Shown here: piece by piece, positions 1,985 to 64,000 of the stretch
Position numbering within the stretch: position 1 is the stretch's first letter
Layout of the letters: every line of letters starts with the position of its first letter
Made by a program: the position numbers and the translations under genes
Source: Parcubacteria group bacterium GW2011_GWC1_36_108
GTDB taxonomy: Bacteria; Patescibacteriota; Minisyncoccia; Moranbacterales; GWC2-37-73
Length of the DNA: 64,000 nt
NCBI GenBank assembly: GCA_000991245.1
Contig: LBRD01000001.1
Span: 69,467-133,466, forward strand
Direction of reading: 5' to 3'
Notes under the pieces: model-generated
The model's database searches: none
Seen by the model: the letters and a program-made list of their open reading frames with translations, nothing else
Told to the model about the DNA's origin: nothing

Positions 1985-2147
1985 TGAATTAACTTACAAC
2001 TTATAACTCATAACTCACAACACGAGATTAACTTACAAATCACGACTTACAACGTACAACAGAAATGCATTGAAGATGTTGTTAGTTATTAGTTGTCGGT
2101 TGTTAGTTTTTGGTTGTGAGTTGTCAGTCATGAGTTGTGGGTTAGTT

Positions 2148-2570
2148 TTAATAGTTTATCAACAGCAGGCTTGATACTGCAATAGTGATGCAGATTTGGA
2201 CTATAAAGGTTGCCAACATCAACAAATGGGCTACTATTCGCTCTTTTTGCTGATAAAACAAATACCCCAATACCGCATTTACACACAAAATAACCAACCC
2301 GATCAGGGGTAAAAAGTACATTTGCCACCATGCCCCAATCACATCCACCCCGAAATATACATTATAGTGAAGAATGATAGGAAAATCAACTGGTCTGATG
2401 AAATATGCAATCGCACCCCAATTTGCAAGATTAACAAAAAACGCACAGATCATAACCCATTGAATTAGTGCGCTACGAAAAAACTCTTGTGAAAAAAAGT
2501 ATTTTAGCTTTAATTTTATATTTTCAATTTTAAAAAAGTTCATGTGGTTTTTCCAAAGCCAGTGGCTCAA
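2148..2570 (-). CDS. Small polytopic membrane protein, hypothetical
   Basis: 140 aa ORF, 3-4 hydrophobic helices. Confidence 0.4.
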   Translation of the reverse strand: MSHWLWKNHMNFFKIENIKLKLKYFFSQEFFRSALIQWVMICAFFVNLANWGAIAYFIRPVDFPIILHYNVYFGVDVIGAWWQMYFLPLIGLVILCVNAVLGYLFYQQKERIVAHLLMLATFIVQICITIAVSSLLLINY

Positions 2571-3654
2571 TTGTTTTTTCGCCTTCGGTTATTTTTGCAA
2601 CATCCTTATCTATTTTTCCAAGCTCTTTATATGCAGTGTTGAAACTGTTTACAGTGGTTCCAAGATTATTTCCCAATTTTTTCAAATAGTCTTCATAGGC
2701 AATAATATGTTTTCCAAGTTTCTCCACGTTGGCACGAATCTCTTTGGCATTTTCCTCAATCTGAAAAGCGCGCAGACCTTGAAGCACTGTCTGCAAATAT
2801 GCCAAAAATGATGTTGGGGAAACGATGATGACTTTCTTTTCTTGAAAAGCATATTCAATCAAATCGCGCGTGTTAATTTGAGCCGCTCCAACTTTGTTTA
2901 CAAGCAAATCATAATAAATTGCTTCAGAAGGAATAAACATAAAAGCAAAGTCCATTGTTCCCATTTCAGGACGAATATATTTAGCAGTTTCATCAATACG
3001 ATTTTTCAAATCTTGCTTGAACAATTTTTCAAATTTTTCACGCTCAGCGCTGTCTGTGCAATTTAGAATTCTTTCATAATTTTCAAGTGAAAACTTTGAA
3101 TCAATTGGCACAATCTTATCCTTCACAAAAACCACCGCATCCACAATCAAATCCTGATCAGTTTTTTCACTCTTTCCAAGCTTATATTGCATTTGATATG
3201 ATTTCGGACCCAGCACATTTTTCAGTGTTTCCTCCAGGAAATATTCCCCCAGCACTCCGCGCTGCTTTGGGTTTTTCAAAATATCCTGCAAATTTTGAAG
3301 TTGCGCTGAAAAATTAACCACTTGCCTATTTGTCTCATCAAGTTTAGTCAGTTTTTCAGTAACATTACTAATAAGCTTGGCTGATTGACCCGTAATCCCC
3401 TTGACTGTCTCAATCGTGTCTCGCATATGCTCACTCGAAGAGCGCCGTGCTTCAGTCAATTTCGTGTCTATCTCAGTGCGCATTTGATGATTTTGTTCGC
3501 TCAAGTTTCGAAGGCGCTCCAAAATTGCCGTCATTTTTTCCCTTTCCTCCTTGTTATCGCTACTCGCCACAACTTTCATTTTTAAATCAAAAACAAGCCA
3601 CAAAAGAGCGGCCAAGATTCCTATTATAATAATCGCGACAAAAATTGATGACAT
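2530..3654 (-). CDS. rmuC: DNA recombination protein RmuC-like
   Basis: 374 aa; N-terminal TM helix, long coiled-coil, C-terminal region with D...D.K/E-x-K nuclease-like residues, as in RmuC. Confidence 0.55.
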   Translation of the reverse strand: MSSIFVAIIIIGILAALLWLVFDLKMKVVASSDNKEEREKMTAILERLRNLSEQNHQMRTEIDTKLTEARRSSSEHMRDTIETVKGITGQSAKLISNVTEKLTKLDETNRQVVNFSAQLQNLQDILKNPKQRGVLGEYFLEETLKNVLGPKSYQMQYKLGKSEKTDQDLIVDAVVFVKDKIVPIDSKFSLENYERILNCTDSAEREKFEKLFKQDLKNRIDETAKYIRPEMGTMDFAFMFIPSEAIYYDLLVNKVGAAQINTRDLIEYAFQEKKVIIVSPTSFLAYLQTVLQGLRAFQIEENAKEIRANVEKLGKHIIAYEDYLKKLGNNLGTTVNSFNTAYKELGKIDKDVAKITEGEKTIEPLALEKPHELF

Positions 3655-3667
3655 ATTTGTTTTATAT

Positions 3668-3806
3668 TTTCAAAAGTTACGCATTTCGAAACATTTCTTT
3701 TTTGGCCAATTGTCGGCGACAGCGACTCTTTGAGCTTTTGGATATTGAGTATTTATCCAAAAGCGTGCCAAATAAGAAATAGTTGAGAAAATGCGTAAGT
3801 CCTAAT
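3668..3806 (+). ncRNA. Copy 1 of a ~138-nt conserved structured element (candidate small RNA)
   Basis: Terminal stem ttacgcatttcg/gaaaatgcgtaag, internal 4-bp stem gtcg-gcgacag-cgac, 11-bp stem gcttttggata/tatccaaaagc. Near-identical copy at 36859-36996. Confidence 0.45.
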
Positions 3807-3807
3807 A

Positions 3808-7234: not shown

Positions 7235-7473
7235 ACTCTTTTCCACATTTCTTTTTTCCGCAAAAAGAAACCTGGAGGAAAGAAAAGCTCGCACCGGATG
7301 AAGATACTGTGGCAAAAACTTCGCTCTTCACTAAAATTTACACTGCGCGCCTACGCTTGCTAGCGGGCGCTACGTTTCAAAATTTCTTAACGCTCATCAC
7401 TCGTTTTTCGCCTACGTACTTCATATGGTGCAAAGGGAATGCGGAATGCGAATACATACAGGAGCGAGAATGA

Positions 7474-7566
7474 TTTTTCTTTTTTCACTTAAAACAAGTC
7501 TCATTGGCGTTATGTCAAAAGTTGCAATTGTTTTTCTGTGACAAAAAGAAAAAGGCATTCGAACGA
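7474..7566. repeat. Copy 1 of a ~95-nt hairpin element
   Basis: Inverted termini ctttttcttttttcac / gtgacaaaaagaaaaag around a conserved core ttaaaacaagtctc..ttgg.gtta..aaaagttgcaattgtttttct. Second copy at 27801-27896. Confidence 0.6.
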
Positions 7567-7644
7567 TGCACGCAGAACGCCTTTAAGAAGTGTAAACACT
7601 ATCTTTATATTATACACCTAAATCATCAAAAAGTCAATGGTAGA

Positions 7645-7677
7645 GCAAAAAACGGCTAACGATAGCCGTTTTTTGAT
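7645..7677. terminator. Bidirectional rho-independent terminator between convergent genes
   Basis: Perfect hairpin aacggctaacgatagccgtt with A-run upstream and T-run downstream. Confidence 0.7.
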
Positions 7678-7712
7678 GTATGTATTTTCCTAACAAGCTA
7701 AAAAGCTAAAGC

Positions 7713-10199: not shown

Positions 10200-10204
10200 T
10201 TTTG

Positions 10205-10360
10205 TTTTATATTTATTTTAATGCATTCATGATACGAATGTTACGAATGACCTTCTACGAATGACGCTAATATGCAAATCAGCCTTCGCATTTTTATTCG
10301 CATCATTAGCATATTCGCGTATTTGCATACATTTGCATAATTCGTATAATTCGTATCAAA
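10205..10360. repeat. Palindromic array of acgaatg/tgcgaat/tgcaaat-type octamers (family R)
   Basis: Left half has forward units (tacgaatg, gctaatatgcaaat); right half has the reverse-complement units (attcgcat, atttgcat, attcgtat). Confidence 0.7.
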
Positions 10361-10798: not shown

Positions 10799-10799
10799 A

Positions 10800-10862
10800 A
10801 GTTTATAATACTAATTATGCGAATGTATGCAAATACGCGAATATGCTAATGATGCGAATTCA
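10800..10862. repeat. Half-array of forward atgcgaat/atgcaaat/atgctaat units (left arm)
   Basis: ctaattatgcgaatgtatgcaaatacgcgaatatgctaatgatgcgaatt. Confidence 0.65.
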
Positions 10863-11261
10863 CTCCTTTGCAGATGAATTAATAATTCTCTTAGGAATTA
10901 AATGTCTTTGATGAAAATTTACGATAATACCTAATTTTAAATTTGCTGCTTTTAAATATCTTTGCGTTTGATTATATTCATCCCTACCTACGAATCTTTT
11001 TGCTTTAACCTCAACAACAATTTTATCCTCTATCAAGAAATCCACCCTATTACTATTATTTCGCATCAAATCATTACCGCTATCTATGCAACATTCTCTT
11101 TTATAATTTATTTGTTTCATTTTCAGTAGTTCTTCAATTGCATCACAATATTGCACTTCCTTACAATAAAAACCAAGTTCATTGTGAGTATCGAAAAATA
11201 TTCCATTGAGTGTATAGGATATTTCAGGATAAATAATATTTTCTAGATTTTTAGTCATCAC
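10860..11261 (-). CDS. PD-(D/E)XK nuclease-superfamily protein, GxxExxY-like
   Basis: 133 aa; N-terminal LGFYCKEVQY (G-x4-E-x2-Y, one residue longer than GxxExxY) and D-x-(E/D)-x-K core DFLIEDKIVVEVKA. Flanked by the two complementary half-arrays of family R. Confidence 0.5.
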   Translation of the reverse strand: MMTKNLENIIYPEISYTLNGIFFDTHNELGFYCKEVQYCDAIEELLKMKQINYKRECCIDSGNDLMRNNSNRVDFLIEDKIVVEVKAKRFVGRDEYNQTQRYLKAANLKLGIIVNFHQRHLIPKRIINSSAKE

Positions 11262-11306
11262 ATTTGCATATTTGCATCATTTGCATTAATTCGCACATTC
11301 GTATCA
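11262..11306. repeat. Half-array of reverse units atttgcat/attcgcac/attcgtat (right arm)
   Basis: catttgcatatttgcatcatttgcattaattcgcacattcgtatc, the reverse-complement unit type of the array at 10800-10862. Confidence 0.65.
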
Positions 11307-19306: not shown

Positions 19307-19420
19307 GCTTAACATAATACGAATTATGCGAATTTATGCGTATGGTGCGAATATGCGAATGACACGAATCATTTGCGTATTCGCGTATTAGCATGACATT
19401 CGCGTCATTAGTATAAATTT
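19307..19420. repeat. Palindromic octamer array, family R
   Basis: cgaattatgcgaatttatgcgtatggtgcgaatatgcgaatgacacgaat | catttgcgtattcgcgtattagcatgacattcgcgtcattagtat. Confidence 0.7.
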
Positions 19421-19422
19421 AT

Positions 19423-21346: not shown

Positions 21347-21419
21347 TTGTCATCCTCAGCTTGACTGGGGATCCAGAGCGATGCCTAGCCCTGGATTCCC
21401 GTTTTCACGGGAATGACAC
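21347..21419. mobile_element. Palindromic element (PE) copy A, intergenic, inverted and diverged
   Basis: ttgtcatcc...ggatccag...ctggattcccgttttcacgggaatgaca; the reverse complement matches the 5' module gtcattcccgtgaaaacgggaatccag of copies B and C. Confidence 0.6.
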
Positions 21420-21469
21420 AGTGGTAATAATTAAGTTAACCTAGTGTTGCGTAACAAGTTACGTAACTT

Positions 21470-23295: not shown

Positions 23296-23392
23296 TCAAC
23301 CATGTAGCATGTAGCATGTAGCATGTAGCAAGAGCTTTTTAAAACTCTCCGCATTTTTGTTATATGTTATATGTTGTATGTTATATGATTAA
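23296..23392. repeat. Tandem heptamer arrays (catgtag)x4 and (atgttat)-type
   Basis: catgtagcatgtagcatgtagcatgtagca ... atgttatatgttgtatgttatatg. Confidence 0.7.
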
Positions 23393-24512
23393 CATATTCC
23401 CCAAACTCATGTCTAAACCTTTCTCTCGAAAATTCTTCTCCTCTTTTTCTGATCACATTTTTATCATATTTATCTTTGCTATCCAAAAATCTCCTCACAC
23501 CATCTGCCAACACTTCTGGTGTCTGAGCATCAAAAAATTCTCCAGTAATTCCCTCTTGCACTGTTTCTTGCGCGCCACCTTTTCGATATGCAATCACAGG
23601 CACACCAGCGAGCATCGCTTCCACTGGCGCAATACCAAAATCATCTTCTGTTGGAAAAATAAAAGCTGCAGCATTTTGATAATATTGCGAAACGGCTGAA
23701 TCATCTTGCCAACCCAAAATGTGCACATTTTCTTTGGCAATTTTCCTCAAGTATTTTTCCTGCTCTCCAGTTCCAATAACAACCAAAGGAAGTCCGAGCT
23801 TATTAAAAGCCTCCACCACCAAATCAACTTTTTTGTATGGAGAAAGACGAGAAACAACTAGAAAATAGGATTTGGGTTTTAGGTTGTAGGTTGTAGGTTT
23901 AGATTGTTTTTCTAATTCCAAATTCCTATTTCCTAATTCCTGATTTACTGGTGGATATATGACTTTACTATCGCGTCTATAATATTTATCTACACGTTGT
24001 TGAGTATATTTCGAATTTGCAATCAGAAAATCCGGCCTGTCCGCTGCCAAGCGATCCCACACGCGCAGATAATTAAAAACTATTCTCGTCAAAAAATTCA
24101 TCCTTCTATGTTCAGTTTCTTTGACATATCTTTCATTATAATCCCAAACAAAACGCATTGGAGAATGAAGATATGCGATATGCACGGTGTCTAATTTTGT
24201 CACAATCCCTTTGCTCCAAGCACCAGAAGATGAAATGACCAAATCATATTCTCGAAGATCAAATGTTTCTGGAATTACTGGGAAAAATGGCAGCAAAAAA
24301 CGATATCTTTTTTTCAAAAAATTTGGGAATTTTTGCAAATATGATGGTCTGATATCTTTCCCCTCAAACAAACCTTTCATTTTTTCTTTATCATACAGCA
24401 ACGTGAAAATTGGCGCCTCTGGATACATATCTGAAAGCTCTTTCAGCACTCTCTCCGCTCCGCCCTGCTGAACAAGGAAGTCGTGGACCAACGCAACCCT
24501 TAATTTATCCAT
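23367..24512 (-). CDS. GT4-family glycosyltransferase
   Basis: 381 aa; EDDFGIAPVEAMLAGVPVIAY (E-x7-E). Contains an in-frame simple repeat (ggttgtaggttgtaggtt giving KPTTYNLKPK). Confidence 0.65.
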   Translation of the reverse strand: MDKLRVALVHDFLVQQGGAERVLKELSDMYPEAPIFTLLYDKEKMKGLFEGKDIRPSYLQKFPNFLKKRYRFLLPFFPVIPETFDLREYDLVISSSGAWSKGIVTKLDTVHIAYLHSPMRFVWDYNERYVKETEHRRMNFLTRIVFNYLRVWDRLAADRPDFLIANSKYTQQRVDKYYRRDSKVIYPPVNQELGNRNLELEKQSKPTTYNLKPKSYFLVVSRLSPYKKVDLVVEAFNKLGLPLVVIGTGEQEKYLRKIAKENVHILGWQDDSAVSQYYQNAAAFIFPTEDDFGIAPVEAMLAGVPVIAYRKGGAQETVQEGITGEFFDAQTPEVLADGVRRFLDSKDKYDKNVIRKRGEEFSRERFRHEFGEYVNHITYNI

Positions 24513-24524: not shown

Positions 24525-25796
24525 TTAATTCTTTTTTAACAATATTTGGGATATTTCCTGTGCACATTTCTCCCAACTGAACCTTTTCACGTTCTCCAAT
24601 CCTTTCTGTATTATAGCATTTTTTAGGGTTTCGTCCGAGATGAGCTTAAAAATATTTTCGGCAATGTCCTGAGGGTTTTGGGGATCGACCAAGAGGGCTG
24701 AGCAATATCCGTTGTCATTCCCGTGAAAACGGGAATCCAGACCCTCTCCTGCATGCTTAGCCCTGGATTCCGGATCAAGTCCGGAATGACAAGATGCAAC
24801 CTCAGGAATAGATGAATTATTGCTAGCCACGACAGGGCAACCAACACTTTGCGCTTCCAAAACAGGAATTCCAAATCCCTCATACAGGGTTGGAAAAACG
24901 AAAACATCCGCCTTTTTTAATAATTCCCATTTTTCTTCTTCACTCACAAAACCAAGCTCGACAATGTCGTCGCAACATTTAACCTTTGACATTTGACTTT
25001 TGACATCTTGATAACCAAATCCAGACTTCCCAGCAAGAACTAGTTTGTGCGGAATATTATATTTCTCTTTCAAAATCTCAAAAGCCTTAACAATATTGGA
25101 AATATTTTTTCTTTCCTCAATGCGACCAATAAATAAAAGAAATTTCGAATTTCGAATTTCGAATTTCGATTGAATTTCTAATGTTTTAATTTTTGAAATT
25201 TGATCATTTGGATTTGATTGGAAATTGGAAATTGGAAATTGGAAATTCCGCTCCCCGCGGCTATACCCTTCGTAAATTACAGATATTTTTTTACTATCCA
25301 CGTTATATAATCTTTGCAAATCAAGCTTTGTATTATTCGACACTGCAATAATTGAACTCGCCCACTGACATGATTTCTTAATCGTTCCGCGCATATAAAT
25401 TCTTTCCCAAGAAGAATATGCTTTTGGACAAAATTCATATTCCAAACCGTGAATCACAACTATTGTTTTTTTGGGATGGATGATTGGAACAGTGTGCGCA
25501 GGAATAAAAAGCACATCAACCGGATGCAACAACATTTCCAAAGACAAGCCAATCTGCGTCCAAAATCTAGGAAATTTAATGACCTTTATTTGCCAACTTT
25601 TTGGCAATTCCAAATCATTAATTTTAACAACTCCGTTGTAAGTTGTAAGTTGTAAGTTGTTAGTTTTTTTAACATACAAAATAACCCGCTGATCATTTAA
25701 TTTATCACGCAGGTTTTTAATAACTTGATATGAATATTCTTCAATTCCAGTTCTGTTTTTTATAAAAGCCCGAGAGCCATCGATTCCTATGATCAT
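24525..25796 (-). CDS. GT4-family glycosyltransferase carrying a palindromic-element insertion and several in-frame oligomer-repeat insertions
   Basis: YEGFGIPVLEAQSVGCPVVAS GT4 motif. Likely start at MIIGIDGSRAF (25796); the ORF-track start at 25838 would read through repeat DNA. In-frame inserts: element copy B (CHSGLDPESR...LDSRFHGND), cgaatttc x3, ttggaaa x4, ttgtaag x3. Confidence 0.6.
   Translation of the reverse strand: MIIGIDGSRAFIKNRTGIEEYSYQVIKNLRDKLNDQRVILYVKKTNNLQLTTYNGVVKINDLELPKSWQIKVIKFPRFWTQIGLSLEMLLHPVDVLFIPAHTVPIIHPKKTIVVIHGLEYEFCPKAYSSWERIYMRGTIKKSCQWASSIIAVSNNTKLDLQRLYNVDSKKISVIYEGYSRGERNFQFPISNFQSNPNDQISKIKTLEIQSKFEIRNSKFLLFIGRIEERKNISNIVKAFEILKEKYNIPHKLVLAGKSGFGYQDVKSQMSKVKCCDDIVELGFVSEEEKWELLKKADVFVFPTLYEGFGIPVLEAQSVGCPVVASNNSSIPEVASCHSGLDPESRAKHAGEGLDSRFHGNDNGYCSALLVDPQNPQDIAENIFKLISDETLKNAIIQKGLENVKRFSWEKCAQEISQILLKKN
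24712..24792. mobile_element. Palindromic element copy B, 81 nt, inserted in frame in the GT4 gene
   Basis: TIR ttgtcattcc/ggaatgacaa; hairpin modules cccgtgaaaacggg and ccggatcaagtccgg; ggaatccag/ctggattcc. Confidence 0.7.
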
Positions 25797-25891
25797 TATA
25801 CGAATTATGCAAATTAATGCTAATACACGAATATGCAAATTAATTCATTCGCATATTTGCATCATTTGCATTCATTCGCGTATTAGTATCA
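25797..25891. repeat. Palindromic octamer array, family R
   Basis: cgaattatgcaaattaatgctaatacacgaatatgcaaattaatt | cattcgcatatttgcatcatttgcattcattcgcgtattagtat. Confidence 0.7.
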
Positions 25892-26904: not shown

Positions 26905-27005
26905 TAAAAAATTTCTAATTACTAATTTCTAATTTCTAAACAATTTCCAATGATTCAATTTTTAAATCCTAATTTCTAATTTCTAATTCCTAACTCCTAA
27001 AATCT
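26905..27005. repeat. Tandem (ctaattt/ctaattc)n array
   Basis: taattactaatttctaatttctaaa...cctaatttctaatttctaattcctaactcctaaaatc; extends into the 3' end of the next CDS. Confidence 0.65.
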
Positions 27006-32416: not shown

Positions 32417-32617
32417 ATGTTTTGTTTTTATTTTGGTTATTTTACAACTATATTATACAAAATTTTGACACTATTAGCAAGCAACAAAGCAATAATTTTC
32501 AATTTACAATTCACAATTTTCATTTAATTTTCAAATACTTAATTTTCAAATCTAAATTAAAATTTTAGTCATTGAGTCATTGAGATTTTATTGGAAATTG
32601 GGAATTGATCATTGGTA

Positions 32618-32696: not shown

Positions 32697-33434
32697 CTAG
32701 ATCCAGCTTTTCGCTTCTAATCCCAATCTAGCGGCTTCCCGCTGAGCTTCTTGTTTTGAATTTCCTTCTCCTTCAGCAACCAATTCATCTGCCAGATATA
32801 CTCCAACCACAAAATGCTTGTCGTGATCAGGTCCCCATTCTTTCATTACGCGATATGATGGTGTTACTTTGCTGTTTTCTTGTGCTTTCTCTTGAAAATA
32901 ACTTTTGGGATCAAGATATAATTTTTTCTCAATTATTTCGCTAAGTTTTGTGGCTACATTTTTCAATACGAATTTTTTTGTAACATCATAACCCTGATCA
33001 AGATATGCTGCACCAATAATAGCCTCCAGTGCGTTAGCCAACAAATATTGCCGAGCACGTCCCTTGTCTTTTGCTTCGCCACGACTCATTAATAAATATT
33101 TTTCAACTCCAATTTCTTGAGAAACAACAGCTAGCATTTCGCCGTTTACCAATGCGCTGCGCCAGCTGGTAAGTTCTCCTTCCGGATTTTTATAATTATT
33201 GTACAAATGTTCAGTAATAATAAGTTCCAAAACTGCATCACCCAAAAATTCCAAACGCTCATTATGGTCAAGCGCATAATCCCTGTTTTCATTCAGATAA
33301 CTGCGATGAGTCACTGCCTGACGCAACAACTCGATATTATCAAATTTAATGCCAATTTTCTTAGCCAAAGACTCTACCATGGAATTTAATGTCAAAACCC
33401 CAATAACAAATGTCAAATAAATGCCAAATGTCAA
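32697..33434 (-). CDS. rnc: Ribonuclease III
   Basis: 245 aa; RNase III signature ERLEFLGDAVLELIITEHLY, C-terminal dsRBD. Confidence 0.85.
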   Translation of the reverse strand: MTFGIYLTFVIGVLTLNSMVESLAKKIGIKFDNIELLRQAVTHRSYLNENRDYALDHNERLEFLGDAVLELIITEHLYNNYKNPEGELTSWRSALVNGEMLAVVSQEIGVEKYLLMSRGEAKDKGRARQYLLANALEAIIGAAYLDQGYDVTKKFVLKNVATKLSEIIEKKLYLDPKSYFQEKAQENSKVTPSYRVMKEWGPDHDKHFVVGVYLADELVAEGEGNSKQEAQREAARLGLEAKSWI

Positions 33435-33510
33435 AATTCAAAAAATTTAAACATTAGGATTTGATTTGAAATTTTTAATTTGAAATTTTTAATTTGAAAT
33501 AATTATTACG
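33395..33510. repeat. Tandem oligomer arrays (aaatgtca/aaatgcca; tttgaaattttta x3)
   Basis: caaatgtcaaataaatgccaaatgtcaaaa ... atttgaaatttttaatttgaaatttttaatttgaaat. Confidence 0.65.
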
Positions 33511-34379: not shown

Positions 34380-34440
34380 TAATTTTAGGGTTTTAATTTC
34401 CAATTTCCAATTTCCAATTTCCAATCAATTTCCAATGACC
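34380..34440. repeat. Tandem (tttccaa)n array, reverse complement of the ttggaaa arrays at 25225 and 43676
   Basis: tttccaatttccaatttccaatttccaatcaatttccaatg. Confidence 0.7.
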
Positions 34441-34561: not shown

Positions 34562-35308
34562 TTATCTTAAGGATGGGTCAATTCCCACAGCCAGAAGCTC
34601 ATTAATCGCTCTTTTGACTGGAGCAAAGCTTTTTCGATGAATCTCGCATGGTCCGTATTTAAAAAGTGCATCCATATGAACCTTCGTTCCGTACCCCTTA
34701 TGTTTATCTAAGCCATATTGAGGGTATTTCGAGGCAAATTCAAGCATCATTCTATCACGAGTCACTTTTGCCACAATCGAAGCCGCTGAAATTGATTTTA
34801 CTAATTTATCCCCTCCCACCACAGCATATTGTTCCATAGAAAGATTTGGGATAACCTTATTGCCATCCACAAGGACTATGTATTTAGGCTCCACATCACC
34901 CCAAATTTCCTGTCCCATGTTGCGTTTAAGCTCCTGGATAGCTTTTTTCATGGACAAAAAACTTGCTTCCAAAATATTAATCCTATCGATCGTTTCATGA
35001 TCGCAAAGTCCGATGCCAATATAAAAATGCTCATTAATAAAATCAAAAATCTCTTCACGCTGTTTTTCTGAAACTTTTTTGGAATCCCGAATAAGATCAA
35101 ATTGCTTTTGTTTGTCAGTGGGAATTTTAAAATTAATATCCTTAAACATTGCAGCGCACGCCAAAACAGGACCACAAAGCGGTCCACGACCAACTTCATC
35201 AGTTCCAATGATATGAGTGAAACCCTGATTAGCAAAATCTTTTTCAAGAATAAATGTTGAAGTCTCCATAAGGGCAGTATAATGCATTTCGCAGAATGTA
35301 TAAAGCAT
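34562..35308 (-). CDS. rnhB: Ribonuclease HII
   Basis: HIIGTDEVGRGPLCGPVLACAA catalytic motif. The real start may be the internal Met (METSTF...). Confidence 0.8.
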   Translation of the reverse strand: MLYTFCEMHYTALMETSTFILEKDFANQGFTHIIGTDEVGRGPLCGPVLACAAMFKDINFKIPTDKQKQFDLIRDSKKVSEKQREEIFDFINEHFYIGIGLCDHETIDRINILEASFLSMKKAIQELKRNMGQEIWGDVEPKYIVLVDGNKVIPNLSMEQYAVVGGDKLVKSISAASIVAKVTRDRMMLEFASKYPQYGLDKHKGYGTKVHMDALFKYGPCEIHRKSFAPVKRAINELLAVGIDPSLR

Positions 35309-37129: not shown

Positions 37130-37280
37130 TTTTTTAAACTACATTGTTTGTGGTTTTTTATTTTATCCGTAATTTTATAATTTTTAATTTTGTAATTTTT
37201 AAATAATGTTCAAATTTTTTAATTTTTAAAAATTAAAAATTAAGATTTATTTATAAAATTTAAAAATTAAAAATTTTTAA
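37130..37280. repeat. AT-rich (aattttta/aaaattaaaaatt)n array
   Basis: Similar arrays at 41040-41170 and 48170-48285. Confidence 0.6.
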
Positions 37281-40834: not shown

Positions 40835-40845
40835 TTGACTTTTAG

Positions 40846-40873
40846 CATATTTTTGCTAAAGTAAGATTACAAT
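40846..40873 (+). promoter_or_regulatory. Sigma70-like promoter (TTGACT-16 nt-TAAAGT) upstream of thrS
   Basis: ttgacttttagcatatttttgctaaagt. Confidence 0.35.
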
Positions 40874-41174
40874 CAAATGGAGCTGCGGATTACCAACCCG
40901 CTTACAGGCTTCCGATTAAGCTGCTTGCGAACAAGCGCACAAAGTGCCCAAATAATACGGGAAATCGAGTGGAACCACCGCAGCGCAAGCTGGGGTCTCG
41001 ATAAAAAAACATTAATCTGTTTTTGCTGTATTGTTTAGGGTTTTTATTTTTAAATTTTTAATTTCCAATTTTGTAATTTTTAAATAAATCCTAATTTTTA
41101 ATGTTTAAAAAATTATGATTTTATATTTTATTTAAAAATTAAAAATTACAAAATTTAAAAATTAATACATAAGT

Positions 41175-43335: not shown

Positions 43336-44733
43336 ATGAAATATTTTATCAAAACATTTGGTTGCCAGATGAATGTTAGCGACAGCGAGCGCATCGCTGC
43401 TTTTTTAGAGCAGCATAATTTTTCTGTTGCTGATAACATCAAAGAAGCTGATTTGGCAATTTTCAATACTTGCGGAATAAAACAAACTGCTGAAAACCGC
43501 GCTTACAGCATGATCAACAATTTGCGCAAGGAGAAAAAACAAGACGTAAAGATAATAATGACGGGCTGCCTTGCAAATCGCGCGGATGTGCAGAAGAGAA
43601 TGAAATCAAAAGTTGATTTATTCTTCCCCGTTAAAGATATTAGGGAATTTGAAAATTGGATCATTGAAAATTATTTGGAAATTGGAAATTGGAAATTGGA
43701 AATTGCGGCACCAAATAAAATTACCAACAAAGAAAAAATCGCATATCTCTCTATTAATCCAAAATATAGTAGCAATTATGCCGCTTATGTTCCTATTATG
43801 ACTGGCTGCAATAATTTCTGCAGTTATTGTGTTGTTCCAAATGCGCGCGGACGCGAGGTTTCTCGTCCTGTAGAAGAAATAATCAAAGAAATTAAAAACC
43901 TTATTACAAAAGGATACAAAAGCATCACACTACTGGGACAAAATGTTAATAGTTATACTTCAAAGGTTTATAAAGTTCGTAAGGTTCGTAAGGTTCATAA
44001 AGAAAACATAGAGGAAATTAATTTTTCGAAATTGTTAAAAAAAATAAATTCAGTTCCAGGAAAATTCTGGATTAGTTTTGTTTCGTCGCATCCCAAAGAT
44101 ATGAGCGATGAATTAATAGAAACAGTAGCAAAATGCAAAAAGGTTTGCGAATGGATTCATTTGCCAATGCAAGCTGGGGATGATGAAATTTTGCGAAGAA
44201 TGAATAGAAAATATACCCAAAAACATTATTTACAGCAAATTAAAAAAATGCGAGCTGCATTTAAAAAATACAAACCTGATTCACTACATTCCATTTCATC
44301 TGATATTATTGTGGGTTTTCCCGGTGAAACAAACAAACAGTTTCTTGAGTCTGCTGAAGTAATGAAGAAATCAAAATTTGATATGGTCTTTTTCGGGCAA
44401 TACTCTCCCCGCCCTGAAACAGTAGCCTGGAAAATGAAAGACAATGTTTCACAAAAAGAAAAGTTTAGGCGTGAAAATTTTCTTAATGAAATTCTCAAGA
44501 AAACCGCTTTTGCAAATAATAAAAAATATGTTGGCAAAACTTTCGAAGTACTTATTGAAACCTGTCGCTCGCGAGCGACGGGTGAAAAAGAAAAAAACAA
44601 TGTCTACTTCGGCAAAACCAGAACCCAGAAAAATGTAAAGCTTATTTCTAACAAAAAAATTCAAATCGGAACATTTATGAAAGTTGAAATTACTAAAGCT
44701 AACATTTGGAACTTAGAAGGTAAAGCAAAATAA
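43336..44733 (+). CDS. miaB: tRNA-2-methylthio-N6-dimethylallyladenosine synthase (MiaB/RimO family methylthiotransferase)
   Basis: 465 aa; UPF0004 cysteines (FGCQMN...NTCGI...TGCL), radical-SAM CNNFCSYC, TRAM C-terminus. In-frame simple-repeat inserts EIGNWKLEI (ggaaatt x3) and KVYKVRKVRKVHK (aaggttcgt x2). Confidence 0.8.
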   Translation: MKYFIKTFGCQMNVSDSERIAAFLEQHNFSVADNIKEADLAIFNTCGIKQTAENRAYSMINNLRKEKKQDVKIIMTGCLANRADVQKRMKSKVDLFFPVKDIREFENWIIENYLEIGNWKLEIAAPNKITNKEKIAYLSINPKYSSNYAAYVPIMTGCNNFCSYCVVPNARGREVSRPVEEIIKEIKNLITKGYKSITLLGQNVNSYTSKVYKVRKVRKVHKENIEEINFSKLLKKINSVPGKFWISFVSSHPKDMSDELIETVAKCKKVCEWIHLPMQAGDDEILRRMNRKYTQKHYLQQIKKMRAAFKKYKPDSLHSISSDIIVGFPGETNKQFLESAEVMKKSKFDMVFFGQYSPRPETVAWKMKDNVSQKEKFRRENFLNEILKKTAFANNKKYVGKTFEVLIETCRSRATGEKEKNNVYFGKTRTQKNVKLISNKKIQIGTFMKVEITKANIWNLEGKAK

Positions 44734-44734
44734 T

Positions 44735-45670
44735 ATGCAAACACAAGCACCAAAAATCATCGTTGTTATGGGACCCACCGCTTCTGGTAAATCCGGAATC
44801 GCTATTAAACTTGCTCAAAAATTTAATGGTGAAATTATCTCAGCCGATTCAAGACAGATTTACAGAGGTCTTGATATTGGCGCAGGCAAAGTTGATGGAG
44901 CATGGAGCATGGAGCATGGAATATTTGTTTCTGACAATGTTTTACACCACTTGATTGATGTGGCTGAGCCAATGGAAGATTATAATATTTCACATTTCAA
45001 AAAAGATGCTGAAAAAATAATTAGAGAAATTATTGAGCGTGGAAAAATCCCAATCATTTGCGGTGGAACAAATTTTTGGATTGATTCAATCACGAAAAAC
45101 ACAACCATACCCGAAGTCGCACCCGACGAACTGCTACGTAGCATGTTACGTAGCAAAACAACTGAGGAACTTTTTGAAGAATTAAAAAAACTTGATCCTG
45201 AGCGCGCGAAAAACATCGATGCAAAAAACCCAGTGCGCCTCATTCGCGCAATTGAAATATGCAAAGAACTTGGCGCAGTTCCAATGTTGTCAGTTGTCAG
45301 TTATGAGTCGTCAGTTAAAAAATATGCTTTTTTGCAAATTGGGATAAAAACTGAGCGAGAAGAATTAAATGCAAAAATACAAAAACGCCTTAATGAACGT
45401 TTTGATGAGGGGATGATTCAAGAAGTTGAAAAGCTCCAAAAAAATGGAGTTTCTTGGCAATGGATGGAGCGCATTGGCTTGGAATATCGCTGGATATCAA
45501 GATTTCTGCAAAACAAGGTTGAGTTAGATGAGATGAAAAAACTTTTATATTTTGACATTATCCACTTCGCCAAACGTCAAATGACTTGGCTTAAAAGAAA
45601 CAAAGATATTGTCTGGCTAGACAAGTATGAAGATATTGAAAAAGAAGTTAAAAATTTTCTTGAAAAATAA
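44735..45670 (+). CDS. miaA: tRNA dimethylallyltransferase
   Basis: 311 aa; P-loop GPTASGKS and DSRQIYRGLDIG. In-frame repeats ggagcat x3 (GAWSMEHG) and tacgtagcatgt tacgtagca (LLRSMLRSK). Confidence 0.85.
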   Translation: MQTQAPKIIVVMGPTASGKSGIAIKLAQKFNGEIISADSRQIYRGLDIGAGKVDGAWSMEHGIFVSDNVLHHLIDVAEPMEDYNISHFKKDAEKIIREIIERGKIPIICGGTNFWIDSITKNTTIPEVAPDELLRSMLRSKTTEELFEELKKLDPERAKNIDAKNPVRLIRAIEICKELGAVPMLSVVSYESSVKKYAFLQIGIKTEREELNAKIQKRLNERFDEGMIQEVEKLQKNGVSWQWMERIGLEYRWISRFLQNKVELDEMKKLLYFDIIHFAKRQMTWLKRNKDIVWLDKYEDIEKEVKNFLEK

Positions 45671-48168: not shown

Positions 48169-48282
48169 AAATAATTTTTAATTTTTAATTTTTAATTTTT
48201 AATCAATTTCAAATGACCAAATTTTAAAATTAAAAATTCATATTTTATTTCAAATTTCAAATTAAAAATTTCAAATTTTGCT

Positions 48283-53317: not shown

Positions 53318-53475
53318 AAAAGTAGTGACGTGAGATTATAATAATAAGAACTATTACCCAAATACTAACAACATATAAACAATGCAGTCAAGAGTTACAC
53401 AAAAAAAAGACACCCGTATGAGTATCTTTTTTGTGAACTCTAAGTTCCTAATTCCTAACTCCTAAATCCTAAGTG

Positions 53476-54204: not shown

Positions 54205-54345
54205 CTAATTAAATTATAAATATAATACTAATATGCAAATTTATACTAATACGCGAATACGCTAATGACGCAAATGAAAACGTGAGCACTGATTTGCATA
54301 TTTGCATCATTCGCAGAAGGTCATTTGCATCATTTGTATCAGGTC
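54205..54345. repeat. Palindromic octamer array, family R
   Basis: ctaatatgcaaatttatactaatacgcgaatacgctaatgacgcaaat ... atttgcatatttgcatcattcgca...tcatttgcatcatttgtatc. Confidence 0.7.
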
Positions 54346-55507: not shown

Positions 55508-55696
55508 TTACTTTATAATAAATGTCTTCAAAATGTAACTAAAAATCCAATCTAATCCCCCAAGAAATCCTGCAACAACCAAGCTAACTGCGACCACAAG
55601 CAACGTATAATTCACTGTTTGCTTTTTGGTTGGCCAATTCACTTTCAGCATTTCTGCCTTAGCTTCAAGGAAAAACTGTATAATTTTGTTAATCAT
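55508..55696 (-). CDS. secE: Preprotein translocase subunit SecE
   Basis: Single TM LLVVAVSLVVAGFLGGLDWIF. Start placed at MINKIIQFF; upstream ATGs lie in the (taacatg)n array. Confidence 0.75.
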   Translation of the reverse strand: MINKIIQFFLEAKAEMLKVNWPTKKQTVNYTLLVVAVSLVVAGFLGGLDWIFSYILKTFIIK

Positions 55697-55780
55697 GTAA
55701 CATGTAACATGTAACATGTAACATTTTAGGCAAACAGCAATGTTTTTGCTATATGCTATATGCTATATGCTATATGATTT
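55697..55780. repeat. Tandem arrays (taacatg)x4 and (gctatat)x4
   Basis: taacatgtaacatgtaacatgtaacat ... gctatatgctatatgctatatgctatatg. Confidence 0.75.
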
Positions 55781-55893: not shown

Positions 55894-55970
55894 TTGGTGG
55901 GCTTATCAAGATTCGAACTTGAGACCTCGTCATTATCAGTGACGCGCTCTAACCAGCTGAGCTATAAGCC
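55894..55970 (-). tRNA. tRNA-Ile (anticodon GAU), CCA encoded
   Basis: Minus-strand sequence GGGCTTATAGCTCAGCTGGTTAGAGCGCGTCACTGATAATGACGAGGTCTCAAGTTCGAATCTTGATAAGCCCACCA folds as a canonical cloverleaf. Confidence 0.9.
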
Positions 55971-56009
55971 CGTATAATTTGTAAAAGCTGCGTGATAAAC
56001 GCAGCATTG

Positions 56010-56082
56010 TGGACCGGACAGGACTTGAACCCGCTACCTCCTCAGTGCAAGTGAGGCGCTCTACCAGGTGAGCTACCGGCCC
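56010..56082 (-). tRNA. tRNA-Ala (anticodon UGC), no encoded CCA
   Basis: GGGCCGGTAGCTCACCTGGTAGAGCGCCTCACTTGCACTGAGGAGGTAGCGGGTTCAAGTCCTGTCCGGTCCA; G3:U70 Ala identity pair; T stem contains two G-U pairs. Confidence 0.85.
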
Positions 56083-60375: not shown

Positions 60376-60376
60376 T

Positions 60377-60706: not shown

Positions 60707-60803
60707 AACTTTTGTTCATGTAGCATATAGCATATTTATACTATAAACTTTTTCTATTATTAATTTAGTGTTACATGCTATATGTTGCATGTTATATGAA
60801 TTT

Positions 60804-61709: not shown

Positions 61710-61755
61710 AAAAAATTTTCCAACAAAATAAAACGTGCATTATTCAGGGATAGGA

Positions 61756-62559
61756 CTATAATCTTATCCCTTTTTTATTTCCAATAAACAATATATTTTT
61801 TCCATCCACAATTGCGCATTTTTCTGTTTTAAAACCTGCTTGTTCAAAAAGTTTTCTTAATTCTCTTTTTGTGAAGGCCCGGTGGAATCTTTGGATCTTC
61901 TCACCCTCATTATTTGTAAAAGATATATAACAATCATTCCAATCCAAAATACTATTTCCCTTTAATTTATCAATCCAGTTTTGTAAAATATTTTTAAAGT
62001 ATTTCTGCTGCCATAAATACCAAACTGTCACCACAATATGCCCACCATCTTTTGTGGTTCGATAAAGTTCTGCTGCCACATCCTCGCGATATTTTTTTGA
62101 AGGAAAATGATGAAAAACAGCAATGCTATATATAGTATTGAAAAAATTATCATTGAATGCTAGAGTGGTTGAACTAGGATTAATTTTCTGAAAACATACC
62201 TCCGTGTCATTCCCGTGAAAACGGGAATCCAGAACTTTGCCAGACTGAAACGCGAACCTAGATTCCGGATCAAGTCCGGAATGACAAACAGACTGTTTTT
62301 GATATTTTTCTTTAGCAAGTTCAATAAGTTTTTCCGAAACATCCAAGCCCCAATAGCGAATATCCTCAAAATCAAGCAATTCCAAAAGGCGACCATTGCC
62401 ACAGCCATAATCCAAAACATTATCATTTTTGCGCGTATAATCTTTTATAAACTCCAGCCCACGCCAAAAATGCTTCCGAGTCTCGGAAAATTTCTTAGAA
62501 ATCAGATCATAGCCAACTTCAGTTTCATTTAATATTCTTTCTGCAATTTCTTTATCCAT
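61756..62559 (-). CDS. Class I SAM-dependent methyltransferase carrying an in-frame palindromic-element insertion
   Basis: Motif I VLDYGCGNGRLLELL; inserted segment CHSGLDPESRFAFQSGKVLDSRFHGNDTEV is encoded by element copy C. Confidence 0.65.
   Translation of the reverse strand: MDKEIAERILNETEVGYDLISKKFSETRKHFWRGLEFIKDYTRKNDNVLDYGCGNGRLLELLDFEDIRYWGLDVSEKLIELAKEKYQKQSVCHSGLDPESRFAFQSGKVLDSRFHGNDTEVCFQKINPSSTTLAFNDNFFNTIYSIAVFHHFPSKKYREDVAAELYRTTKDGGHIVVTVWYLWQQKYFKNILQNWIDKLKGNSILDWNDCYISFTNNEGEKIQRFHRAFTKRELRKLFEQAGFKTEKCAIVDGKNILFIGNKKGIRL
62204..62287. mobile_element. Palindromic element copy C, 84 nt, in frame in the methyltransferase gene
   Basis: gtgtcattcccgtgaaaacgggaatccag...tagattccggatcaagtccggaatgacaa; same modules and orientation as copy B. 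Confidence 0.7.
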
Positions 62560-62600
62560 GACTTTATGAACTTTATAACTTTATAACTTTATGAACTTAC
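62560..62600. repeat. Tandem (aactttat)n array at the Elp3 start
   Basis: gaactttataactttataactttatgaactt; its reverse complement array lies at 63117-63157 inside the same gene. Confidence 0.7.
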
Positions 62601-64000
62601 TGTACGACAATTATATAATCTCCGCAATAAACGAACTTTCTGAAAATCAGGGAGATTTTGGCAAACTCAAAAAAAGTCTATGCAAAAAATTTGGCGTTGC
62701 TATGCCGACCAACGCTGATTTACGTGACAGATACAATAAATTAGTCCAGCAAAAGAAAATTAAACGCAGCGAAAAATTTGAGGAAGCTTTGATGAGTCGT
62801 TTGATTCGCACACAATCCGGTGTGGCTGTGGTGGCGGTTCTTACCAAATCATATCCCTGCCCCGGAAAATGTATTTATTGCCCCAGTGAAAAAGATATGC
62901 CCAAAAGCTATCTTTCCAATGAGCCGGCTGTGATGCGTGCGATTGATTCGCAATTTGATCCATATCGCCAAATGCAAAATCGTCTGCGTTCATTGGAGCT
63001 CAACGGCCACCGCACAGATAAAATTGAATTAATTGTGATGGGTGGAACATTCAGTTTTTTACCTAAAAATTACCAAAAAAAATTTATCACCAGATGTTTT
63101 CAAGGAGCTAATGAATATAAAAGTTATAAAGTTCATAAAGTTATAAAGTTCATAAAGTCGGTGAGGACTCCTAACGAAGAACTTTTATACCAACAAAAGA
63201 AAAATGAAAGTGCTAATCACAGGATTATTGGGCTTACTTTGGAAACGCGACCGGATTATATTGATGAAAAAGAAATTTTGAACTTTCGCCAACTTGGCTG
63301 CACCAGAGTTGAACTTGGTGTACAAAGTCTTTATGACAACGTGCTCGAATTAAACAAGCGTGGACACCTCATCCAAAGCACCATAGAAGCCACCAAAATG
63401 CTCAAGGATAGTGGTTTCAAGATAAATTATCATATGATGCCGGGGCTTCCGGGAAGCACCCCAAAGCGCGATTTTGAGATGTTTAAGGCCCTTTTTGAAG
63501 GTCCCAAATTTCAACCTGATATGCTCAAAATATACCCCACGGTCGTTTTAAAAAACAGCGAGCTGTATAACATCTGGAAGAAAAATAACTACGTCCCACT
63601 GACAAATCAAGCGTTTGAGAGGCTTGTGGTCAAGATAAAAAACGAAGCAATCACGCCCTATGTTCGCATTGCTCGCCTTATTCGCGATGTGCCCACCCCA
63701 TCCATTATAGCTGGCCCAACAGTTTCCAATCTTAGACAAATTATTATTCCACAATCCAATTGTCCTTGCATTCGTTGCCGTGAAGTTGGCGCAGGTTATA
63801 CCATCAAAGAAGAAATTATCCTGGATCGAATTGACTACGCCGCCTCAGATGGTACAGAAATTTTCCTGCAATACGTTTCGCCAGACAAGAAAAAGTTGTT
63901 TGCGCTCCTGCGCCTACGCATTCCATCAGAGAACAATGCTAAGCATTTTATTGGCACACTAAAAAATGCAGCCATTATTAGAGAAGTTCACACTTACGGA
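62591..64000 (+). CDS. Elp3-like radical-SAM protein (tRNA wobble-uridine modification family), partial (continues past window end)
   Basis: Manual translation: CPGKCIYC (CxxxCxxC) radical-SAM cluster motif and GCTRVELGVQS, characteristic of Elp3. Absent from the ORF track, probably because the ORF has no in-window stop codon. Contains an in-frame (ataaagtt)n array (YKSYKVHKVIKFIKS). Confidence 0.7.
   Translation, partial: MNLLYDNYIISAINELSENQGDFGKLKKSLCKKFGVAMPTNADLRDRYNKLVQQKKIKRSEKFEEALMSRLIRTQSGVAVVAVLTKSYPCPGKCIYCPSEKDMPKSYLSNEPAVMRAIDSQFDPYRQMQNRLRSLELNGHRTDKIELIVMGGTFSFLPKNYQKKFITRCFQGANEYKSYKVHKVIKFIKSVRTPNEELLYQQKKNESANHRIIGLTLETRPDYIDEKEILNFRQLGCTRVELGVQSLYDNVLELNKRGHLIQSTIEATKMLKDSGFKINYHMMPGLPGSTPKRDFEMFKALFEGPKFQPDMLKIYPTVVLKNSELYNIWKKNNYVPLTNQAFERLVVKIKNEAITPYVRIARLIRDVPTPSIIAGPTVSNLRQIIIPQSNCPCIRCREVGAGYTIKEEIILDRIDYAASDGTEIFLQYVSPDKKKLFALLRLRIPSENNAKHFIGTLKNAAIIREVHTYG

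Follow-up and report, generated by a model that had tools for sequence, protein, structure and literature searches.

Heptanucleotide tandem repeats of about four units in the spacers and conserved genes of a Moranbacteria genome

Bacterial heptamer repeats, known since 1990, are still unexplained. The STRR heptanucleotides of heterocystous cyanobacteria were reportedly described by Mazel et al. in 1990, and, to our knowledge, G-quadruplex formation is the sole mechanistic rationale offered for the preference of heptamer arrays for four units. Other short dispersed repeats, such as the Rickettsia palindromic elements, REP/BIME, MITEs, and the small dispersed repeats of Nostoc, form hairpins and lie in spacers, and the Rickettsia elements also occur in frame in conserved protein genes, at surface-tolerant positions. 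Here, we describe short tandem arrays, essentially of 7-nt units, in a 64,000-nt stretch of DNA (hereafter, the window) from Parcubacteria group bacterium GW2011_GWC1_36_108, an ultra-small groundwater bacterium of the Moranbacteria (assembly GCA_000991245.1, contig LBRD01000001.1, positions 69,467 to 133,466 of the forward strand), where they sit both between genes and in frame within conserved ones. Positions below are counted from the first letter of the window.

Rehm et al. (2015, PMC4692102) described heptameric GGGAATC/GGGGAYT repeats in Xanthomonas and Nostoc, with a preference for four units. These repeats lie preferentially between co-oriented open reading frames (ORFs), occur as convergent (inverted) pairs able to form stem-loops, and are usually kept in their gene context in related species while differing in sequence and length (PMC4692102). 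The same article relays the idea that a heptamer is the DNA segment held at the polymerase active site, and it cites Mrazek et al. (2007) for a general excess of heptamer simple-sequence repeats in bacteria. MacGregor (2015, PMC4679880) reported TAACTGA direct repeats, in two to six copies, from marine Beggiatoaceae, some Cyanobacteria, and Bacteroidetes; most precede a start codon by a few nucleotides, in places with few ribosome-binding sites, some are within ORFs, and they adjoin essential genes, including ribosomal protein operons. Finally, as outlined by Schoelmerich et al. (2023, PMC9879509), the tandem repeats of Borgs are perfect and of recent origin, and they have arisen independently in intergenic DNA as well as in frame within genes.

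Among GTDB species representatives, the MiaB proteins nearest to that of the window belong to Candidatus Moranbacteria and other Patescibacteria (best identity 72%), and our first expectation, a heterocystous cyanobacterium with STRR repeats, was dropped for that reason. The window carries miaB, miaA, two GT4 glycosyltransferase genes (GT4-1 and GT4-2), mreB, rnhB, rnc, nusB, dnaE, thrS, gatB, rplA, nusG, a thioredoxin gene, and an Elp3-like radical-SAM gene, labels that match those of the initial annotation. Exact-protein look-ups found a matching population in groundwater assemblies from the Rifle aquifer. Seven assemblies form our conspecific set (98.9-100% identity): L085 and L086 match the window at 100%, L082 and L083 at 99.5-99.8%, and L219-L221 at 98.9-100%. 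L081 and L087 are more distant at ~89%, and L084 at ~86%. We further used a sample of 80 related loci (1.3 Mb), a wide sample of 2.2 Mb of other Candidate Phyla Radiation (CPR) and metagenome DNA, from which the searched-for unit (AATTTCC) was left out of counts, and 130 independent viral and metagenome loci containing (AATTTCC)3.

At three or more copies, perfect arrays number 11 at period 7 and one at period 8, with none at periods 5, 6, or 9-15, and 50 dinucleotide-preserving shuffles of the window yielded no heptamer array at all. With imperfect arrays admitted, 17 segments are found at lag 7 against 0.05 expected, the signal at lag 14 being a harmonic. Tandem Repeats Finder (TRF) returned 108 rows, most at period 7 or its multiples. 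The initial annotation had proposed pervasive arrays of 7-9-nt units in almost every intergenic region. The arrays are real: TRF rows fall where it had placed them, and the units it cited are present, among them CATGTAG (23301), TGCTATA (55747), CATGTAA (55694), TTGGAAA (25217 and 43675), AATTTCC (34395), AATTTCG (25141), and AACTTTAT (62569). The unit, though, is essentially 7 nt; two smaller families do exceed it, one of 8-9 nt (ATGCGAAT/ATGCAAAT) and one of 8/9 nt (AACTTTAT). "Almost every" spacer was too generous, as about 22 of the 42 spacers of at least 50 nt bear arrays.

As had been supposed, the arrays are a property of the genome at large and extend beyond the window. The 1.3 Mb of relatives holds 30 arrays at period 7 against 1, 2, 4, and 0 at periods 5, 6, 8, and 9. 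Density per 100 kb is 21.8 in the 86-89% relatives, 4.4 in other Moranbacteria-like loci, and 1.4 in other Patescibacteria; a 50-kb E. coli control had none. A CRISPR array, already discounted in the initial annotation, is ruled out: these are directly abutting 7-nt units of ~30 nt in total, not 24-47-nt repeats with unique spacers.

The arrays also have a preferred length. In the window, 8 of the 11 perfect arrays measure 29-32 nt. Across the 80 related loci, period-7 runs show a second mode at 29-33 nt with none longer, whereas run length at periods 6, 8, and 9 decays monotonically. The wide sample contains 45 perfect heptamer runs of 22-27 nt, 44 of 29-34 nt, and three of at least 35 nt; no run is exactly 28 or 35 nt and four are 21 nt, so length follows 7n + m with m at least 1. 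Among (AATTTCC)n arrays, 65 of 131 are 30-33 nt and 12 of 131 are at least 34 nt, the peak being strongest among low-GC contigs. In the window, the 2.2 Mb, and the (AATTTCC)n loci alike, young (perfect) arrays are four units plus a partial unit of 1-6 nt (29-34 nt), a set of lengths that birth between two microhomologies 7 nt apart predicts.

At array boundaries we found no target-site duplication. Of the metagenomic (AATTTCC)4 arrays, 17-20% have a perfect hairpin of 6-11 bp, unrelated in sequence, flush against their 5' boundary, compared with 2-4% of controls (contigs L100, L101, L106, L111, L117, L121, L130, L153, L163, and L166, among others); for other units the effect is weak (11% vs 2.5%, n=44). 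Such a hairpin is possibly a terminator tail, an insertion target, or a stall site.

Array units are mostly AT-rich (AATTTCC, CATGTAG, TAATTTT, TGCTATA, ATGGAGC, GTTGTAA, etc.), and no G3 run occurs in those of the window. G-quadruplex formation as the reason for four units is ruled out for these arrays, since units without G-tracts show the same preference, and this argues against the published G-quadruplex rationale. STRR repeats are likewise said to be tandem heptanucleotides, intergenic and lineage-wide, with several unit families per genome; they reportedly belong to a different phylum and comprise a few defined units, and we know of no description of in-frame occupancy of conserved genes or of a four-unit cap among them. 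Borg units are said to be longer, in many copies, and divisible by three in ORFs, whereas here the unit is 7 nt and frame is kept by adding three units.

The repeats of Xanthomonas and Nostoc (PMC4692102) are the nearest match, with the same period of 7, four-unit preference, position between co-oriented ORFs, inverted pairs, and genome-wide spread. Those genomes each hold one G-rich unit family and under-represent it in coding sequences (CDSs), whereas here there are dozens of mostly AT-rich units without G-tracts, almost no arrays above four units, and occupancy of CDSs about as at random. TAACTGA repeats (PMC4679880) share the position just upstream of starts with few ribosome-binding sites; they have one conserved unit, thought to be bound by one regulator, whereas the present units are many, unrelated, and often in inverted pairs. 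Borg repeats (PMC9879509) resemble these arrays in adding short low-complexity peptide segments to proteins, but on archaeal extrachromosomal elements rather than a bacterial chromosome. The initial annotation had called the repeats lineage-specific, which does not hold: four-unit heptamer arrays, their co-oriented position, and inverted pairing are published for Xanthomonas and Nostoc (PMC4692102), and start-abutting heptamers for Beggiatoaceae (PMC4679880). A literature search on repeats in CPR/Patescibacteria found nothing relevant. What is new with respect to the known heptamer class is the combination of AT-rich, non-quadruplex units, heavy in-frame occupancy of conserved genes, and a nearly absolute four-unit cap.

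Within the window, 15 of 24 arrays lie in non-coding DNA, which is ~13% of the sequence, and 9 lie in the CDSs of four genes, an enrichment in spacers. Coding DNA is not avoided in the wide sample, where 32 of 44 four-unit arrays (73%) are in long open frames against 70% of random positions, nor by (AATTTCC)4, of which 66 of 95 are inside open frames, encoding FPISNFQFPI or LEIGNWKLEI. Relative to a single resident unit, four units add 21 nt, and the modal array is therefore frame-preserving; to that extent the earlier argument from frame stands. As the cause of array size, frame selection fails, because intergenic arrays share the 29-34-nt mode and the cut-off after four units: copy numbers (n=3 : n=4 : n>=5) are 19:12:1 between genes and 26:32:2 in CDSs, and five perfect intergenic arrays of the window are 30-32 nt. 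Blocks in CDSs measure 26-31 nt, like those between genes, and not multiples of three as had been stated.

The host proteins are MiaA, MiaB, the two GT4 glycosyltransferases, and the Elp3-like protein, and judging from alignments the array sites in conserved proteins are probably indel-tolerant loops or linkers. In MiaB, the linker between UPF0004 and radical-SAM (Pfam, alignment) holds an in-frame element of the family termed A below (43647..43705, plus strand), with a perfect (TTGGAAA)4.4 at 43675-43705 and the encoded peptide FENWIIENYLEIGNWKLEI. The same element is found in seven orthologues (L001, L003, L004, L006, L008, L016, L042), is replaced by different heptamers in L002, L005, and L009, and is absent from L007 and L012, and this pattern of array replacement holds across orthologues down to 43% identity. 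A second MiaB loop, variable among orthologues, contains an in-frame 9-nt repeat, TTCATAAGG x4.8, encoding KVYKVRKVRKV (43959..44000, plus strand; TRF, alignment). In MiaA, an in-frame (ATGGAGC)3.7 encodes GAWSMEHG in the loop after the GxGK motif (44895..44920, plus strand; array count, alignment); the same loop has a perfect (TGGAACG)4.1 in L009, at equal protein length, other heptamers in L022, L004, L014, and L007, and none in L003 and L012. A degenerate in-frame (GTTGTCA)4.4 occupies a second variable MiaA loop (45286..45316, plus strand; TRF, alignment columns 220-245).

Both glycosyltransferase genes are on the minus strand. GT4-2 (23367-24512) contains two adjacent in-frame arrays, GGTTGTA x4.9 and CTAATTC x4.9 (23875..23945, TRF), encoding ...ELGNRNLELEK... 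and KPTTYNLKPK; L084 has the same arrays there and L081 has (ATGGAGC)n and (AATACCA)n. In GT4-1 (24525-25796) there are three in-frame sites. The first is a degenerate ACATTTG x5.1 (24975..25011, TRF). The second is a family A hairpin element in the interdomain linker, between Pfam Glyco_transf_4 and Glycos_transf_1 (25136..25252; perfect arrays, fold, Pfam); it consists of (AATTTCG)4.1 at 25141-25169, a core, and (ATTGGAA)4.4 at 25217-25247, folds at -22.3 kcal/mol (z = -3.8) with six pairs and one mismatch per unit (6+1), and is identical in L081 but replaced in L084 by a (CAGTCAT)n...(TGATGAC)n element. The third, (GTTGTAA)4.4 near the N-terminus (25635..25665; TRF, perfect-array count), has the same copy number in L081 and L084, with point substitutions only. 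In the Elp3-like gene (537 aa, Radical_SAM and Radical_SAM_C domains), an in-frame array of the family termed E below, AAAGTTCAT x4.6, encodes YKVHKVIKF (63120..63158, plus strand; TRF, translation) and is the reverse complement of an array at 62561-62598. These sites bear out the peptide inserts listed in the initial annotation (LEIGNWKLEI, KVYKVRKVRKV, GAWSMEHG, KPTTYNLKPK, three in GT4-1, and YKVHKVIKF) with one exception: LLRSMLRSK aligns gap-free to MiaA orthologues and is no insert.

Two further proteins deserve mention. In leuS, (AATTTCC)4 occurs at one position, directly before the FTTRPDT motif, in three organisms (L109, L203, L114), and in tsaD directly before the FP..L.VSGGHT motif in two (L194, L108). 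The native downstream sequence of tsaD (ATTTTCCC / ATTTCCC) is unit-like and may have been the seed of the array.

Between genes, the arrays fall into families. Family A has NGAAATT units with a conserved tip, GGTCATTGGAAATTGATT; family B has ATGCGAAT/ATGCAAAT; family C reads CATATAG ... TGYTAYA; family D has CAACTNA/GTTGTAA; and family E has AACTTTATR. Where two arrays are inverted relative to each other, they form long hairpins in which each unit contributes six base pairs and a mismatch. The pairing noticed in the initial annotation is borne out by 1987-2032, which pairs with 2102-2147 (fold of the region -41.9 kcal/mol, z = -4.4). Most hairpins have z-scores of -2 to -5, and three are not significant (-1.2, +1.3, -0.6). 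Array-bearing spacers are mostly between co-oriented genes: three of the four convergent spacers have no arrays and the fourth (7235-7712) has weak ones, while arrays occur in one or two of the five divergent spacers.

Within strains the arrays are stable. No copy-number change was found in ~20 arrays across the seven conspecific assemblies (18.4 kb compared with L082, L083, L085, and L086; 16-20 kb with L219-L221), which speaks against the earlier description of the repeats as slippage-prone. Conspecific differences are instead patches of single-nucleotide polymorphisms and whole-cassette replacement of two spacers. One is the rnhB-rpmF spacer (34315-34608), entirely non-homologous to that of strains 99.5-99.8% identical elsewhere; the segments that meet there are 98.6% and 99.95% identical, a sign that the cassette may have been replaced by recombination. 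The other separates tRNA-Ala(TGC) from tRNA-Ile(GAT) (55895-56082, minus strand). This tRNA pair usually resides in the spacers of rRNA operons; here it stands alone, with no rRNA nearby, and its 37-nt spacer has a small terminator-like hairpin. In L219 (8721-8803), an 81-nt heptamer hairpin of the same family (D) as the element at 1985-2147 replaces the 37-nt spacer.

Between species the picture changes. In the 86-89% relatives, some arrays keep their copy number and differ by point substitutions (25635; the hairpin of GT4-1 in L081), and one differs by a single unit (26939), such 7-nt differences being seen only at greater than conspecific distance. Elsewhere, different units stand at identical places, namely in GT4-2, GT4-1, and the holB and rnc spacers. 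The GT4-1 site at 24970-25015 is of equal length in the window, L081, and L084, with differing units; L081 has a perfect (AAATTCG)4.4 there and, at a distance of 168 nt, an identical array in GT4-1 as well, which looks like copying between arrays. The arrays are not hypermutable, but over the time in which species diverge they become homogenised or are replaced.

We hold with moderate confidence that the arrays are heptanucleotide simple-sequence repeats of the STRR / GGGAATC / TAACTGA kind, generated by slippage primed at microhomologies or by copying of a template; as first proposed, an origin by slippage or recombination is the best reading. As the generating mechanism we infer slippage to four units together with copying between arrays. 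Two short microhomologies 7 nt apart would let the nascent strand slip back, and re-slipping within one replication event would give four units, presumably in a single burst. The added 21 nt would keep the frame, which would allow survival in essential genes with no frameshifted two- or three-unit intermediates. Degenerate arrays would be re-homogenised from a similar array nearby or elsewhere, by template switching or gene conversion, and would later decay by point mutation. Units containing stop codons would persist only between genes, and spacers would accumulate arrays, often as inverted pairs giving 6+1 hairpins.

Several observations weigh against this account. Slippage leaves both the 7-nt register and the stop at four units unaccounted for. 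The (AATTTCC)4 arrays share one phase, with ~52 of 60 beginning AATTTCC and the 3' end ragged (...CCAA, AAT, AATT, AATTT); independent births from random seeds do not predict this, unlike the copying of pre-formed arrays. The same unit can also recur in unrelated places and genomes, as with ATGGAGC in miaA of the window and GT4-2 of L081, or GGAGCGT-type units in both miaA and miaB of L022 and L005. When 21 kb of the window was aligned with L081 and L084, no pair of empty and filled sites showing a +21-nt birth appeared; the four clean indels are of 7, 15, and 45 nt relative to L081 and 15 nt relative to L084. Lastly, in six genomes the family A arrays come with a conserved core that is not a repeat, which points to dispersal and not purely local birth.

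A tentative alternative, which we think unlikely, is the following. A unit-agnostic process would write four 7-nt units and a partial one (~30 nt) in a single step at any place in CPR genomes, essential genes among them, and would re-homogenise arrays in place. The four-unit, 7-nt rule would then be a general sign of a "ruler" in the replisome or in repair that cyanobacteria and Xanthomonas also have, not of a G-quadruplex or a sequence-specific function, and the fixed phase, ragged 3' end, and flush hairpins of (AATTTCC)4 would be marks of where synthesis starts.

It is also possible, though we judge it improbable, that the arrays are the arms or bodies of tiny non-autonomous mobile elements (REP, MITE, or Rickettsia-palindromic-like), copied as pre-formed pieces of ~30-110 nt, in frame within genes. 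The family A core, AATCAATTTCCAATGAYC, occurs with flanking arrays in three spacers and two genes of the window and in L003, L004, L005, L011, L019, and L042; at least nine independent loci in six genomes share it. The GT4-1 insert and the copy in the rnhB-rpmF spacer align over ~75 nt, and (AATTTCC)4 keeps its phase and a fixed 30-nt body in very diverse flanks, GC-rich contigs included, with the flush hairpins already described. The family D hairpin is present or absent in the conspecific tRNA spacer, and L081 has a 45-nt GC-rich palindrome in frame in holB (window ~22516). That palindrome differs from a GC-rich hairpin, GGATTCCCGTTTTCACGGGAATGACA, that recurs at ~21390-21420 in the window and in the mreB-upstream spacer of L084; such GC-rich palindromes make up a second, separate class of small palindromic repeats that has no relation to the heptamers.

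Against mobile elements, there are no terminal inverted repeats besides the arrays themselves, no target-site duplications, and no transposase, RAYT-type or other, among 30 Pfam-scanned genes of the window. Palindromic elements reportedly keep a consensus along their full length, whereas here the arms are homogeneous heptamer arrays whose unit varies from copy to copy, and unrelated units of equal size occupy identical sites. Outside this genome, inverted pairing is not general and solo, unpaired arrays dominate (the metagenome sample), and the 7n + m length rule is valid for all units. The strain polymorphisms lie at recombination breakpoints and could be allelic replacement.

A function in cis might set the size instead: spacer arrays and hairpins would act as initiation or standby sites replacing Shine-Dalgarno motifs, as promoter hexamers, or as RNase III or mRNA-stability hairpins. 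We find this doubtful as the primary explanation. In its favor, of the 34 intergenic arrays, 13 end no more than 12 nt from a start codon, and those genes have no visible Shine-Dalgarno motif; the starts are backed by the position of the first Pfam domain in seven genes (holB, mreB, PDDEXK_3, dnaE, gatB, thioredoxin, and GT4-1 at its called start). The bias toward co-oriented genes, the rarity in convergent spacers, and the hairpin z-scores of -2 to -5 point the same way, and a like argument has been made for TAACTGA repeats (MacGregor 2015, PMC4679880). Some arrays supply -35/-10-like hexamers (TTGGAA-17-TAAAAT, 34410-34382). The mazG-gatB element and its counterpart in the L005 spacer are ~93% identical, with a perfect array in both genomes, against ~75% for the flanking genes. 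Because it is more conserved than its neighbors, selection appears to maintain at least some spacer elements, plausibly at the level of mRNA or translation initiation.

Other observations weigh against function in cis. With units that bear no relation to one another from array to array, a single sequence-specific binder is ruled out, and orthologous spacers in the 86-89% relatives hold different units or unrelated cassettes. Arrays of equal size occur in coding DNA at the frequency of random positions. A search against Rfam 15 (gathering score and E <= 0.05) matched only the two tRNAs and none of the hairpins, a promoter consensus scan gave 59 sites against 43 +/- 6 in shuffles, a weak enrichment, and the three hairpins noted above are not significantly stable. 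For the promoter or UP-element role that the initial annotation had raised as a possibility, what is observed is closeness to start codons. Array-bearing spacers generally have no obvious Shine-Dalgarno motif. TATAAT-like hexamers ~6-10 nt upstream of ATG starts that have no visible Shine-Dalgarno motif (19405-19425, 10799-10815, 54205-54240) are a hint of leaderless mRNAs.

Phase-variable contingency loci, switching genes by copy number, are very improbable. Heptanucleotide promoter repeats do act in this way in the hmw genes of Haemophilus influenzae, and the present arrays adjoin start codons and occur within genes, but copy number is invariant among conspecifics and kept even at 86-89% identity, so these are not phase-variation loci; the hosts, moreover, are housekeeping genes (miaA, miaB, leuS, tsaD), with only four copies. 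An assembly artefact, in which de Bruijn graphs collapse longer repeats to about k-mer length, is scarcely credible: the narrow 29-34-nt range does resemble a small k and all data are short-read metagenome assemblies, but the size recurs across many projects and assemblers, arrays are far below read length and final k, in-CDS arrays keep frame and protein length across orthologues, independent assemblies of one population give identical arrays, and only 2 of 133 arrays touch a contig end.

For those who wish to revisit the spacer elements, we give their positions by family. Family A is represented at four places on the minus strand besides the rnc-amidohydrolase spacer, which holds degenerate arrays (32494..32584, minus strand; TRF, spacer listing). 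Upstream of mreB, (AATTTCT)-type arrays flank the core AAACAATTTCCAATGATT at 26938-26955 (26910..27000; TRF x12.3, core match); the element ends 10 nt from the mreB start, and it is here that L081 differs by one unit. The nusB-rnc spacer has arrays of period 14 and 7, TTTAATTTGAAATT x2.9 (33433..33500, TRF), and L081 and L084 show the same architecture with (AGAAATT)4 and (CGAAATT)4. In the rnhB-rpmF spacer, a perfect (AATTTCC)4.4 is followed by the core AATCAATTTCCAATGACC (34395..34440; array count, core match). The mazG-gatB spacer is filled by an element (48172..48278; TRF, array count, core match, fold) made of a perfect (TAATTTT)4.6, the core AATCAATTTCAAATGACC, and (AATTTCA)n, ending 3 nt upstream of the gatB start.

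Family B, with its 8-9-nt units, forms a hairpin with ATGCGAAT/ATGCAAAT on both arms at 10200..10360 (minus strand; TRF 10229-10356, fold -33.7 kcal/mol, z = -2.2), and further copies at 10799-10859 and 11261-11286 (the latter a TRF row) surround a PDDEXK_3 nuclease gene (10860-11261, Pfam). Other members fill the whole spacer upstream of PMT_2, which starts at 19423 (19307..19422, plus strand; TRF 19320-19389, -44.6 kcal/mol, z = -5.15), and lie in the rplK-rplA spacer (54205..54344, minus strand; TRF 54248-54341, fold -33.1 kcal/mol, z = -2.7) and the mreB-GT4-1 spacer (25795..25876, minus strand; TRF). In L084 (10224-10670), a PDDEXK_3 gene sits between mreB and GT4-1, where the window has just the family B repeat. 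Such placements suggest that family B repeats may be associated with a small mobile nuclease gene (PDDEXK_3).

The mreB-GT4-1 repeats overlap a false N-terminal extension of GT4-1, whose called start is 25796 against 25838 in the ORF track. The initial annotation was right about such extensions: the ORF-track starts of GT4-1, NUDIX, rnc, rnhB, secE, and rplA all lie upstream of the starts called on identical or near-identical contigs.

The family C pairs are on the minus strand. At 23301..23387 (TRF, perfect-array count), a perfect (CATGTAG)4.3 at 23301-23330 lies 5 nt upstream of the holB start (23295), and (TGTTATA)4.3 at 23358-23387 overlaps the last GT4-2 codons; L081 and L084 have an unrelated family A element in this spacer instead. 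At 55694..55776 (array count, fold), a perfect (CATGTAA)4.4 (55694-55724), which overlaps the secE start (55696), and a perfect (TGCTATA)4.3 (55747-55776) fold at -24.8 kcal/mol (z = -3.5) with strict 6+1 periodicity. A degenerate pair at 60717..60798 (TRF, fold z = -2.6) ends 10 nt upstream of the thioredoxin start. The family D element (1985..2147, unstranded; TRF, inverted repeat I5, and the fold given above) lies 6 nt upstream of the start of gene 296-1984(-); its (AACTTAC)-type arm at 1991-2060 and inverted (GTTGTNA) arm at 2078-2144 make 6-bp helices with single mismatches between. Family E is found as ACTTTATGA x4.4, 1 nt upstream of a methyltransferase start at 62559 (62561..62598, minus strand; TRF).

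The remaining spacer arrays are AT-rich inverted TAATTTT / TTAAAAA arrays in a divergent spacer, ending 7 nt upstream of the dnaE start (37170..37275, unstranded; TRF, inverted repeats I1-I4, fold z = -3.2), AT-rich inverted heptamer arrays ending 9 nt upstream of the thrS start (41041..41165, unstranded; TRF, inverted repeats I3, I6, I7), and (CTAATTC)4.6 between the rplA stop, which it directly follows on the 3' side, and a canonical terminator (53440..53472, minus strand; TRF, spacer listing). The thrS leader (40835-41030) is GC-rich and apparently structured; a T-box might be expected there, and it had no Rfam match even at E <= 0.05.

A four-unit rule that holds with AT-rich units speaks for a feature of the process that makes the arrays, or for a structural length near three helical turns, and not for the sequence of the unit. 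The process also puts peptides of 7-10 residues into loops of essential, conserved proteins across the CPR. This is relevant to the many unexplained insertions in CPR proteins and to the alignment and phylogeny of CPR marker genes, and equally to gene calling, where stop-free arrays create false N-terminal extensions. As the arrays are stable within populations and turned over between species, they could serve as lineage markers.

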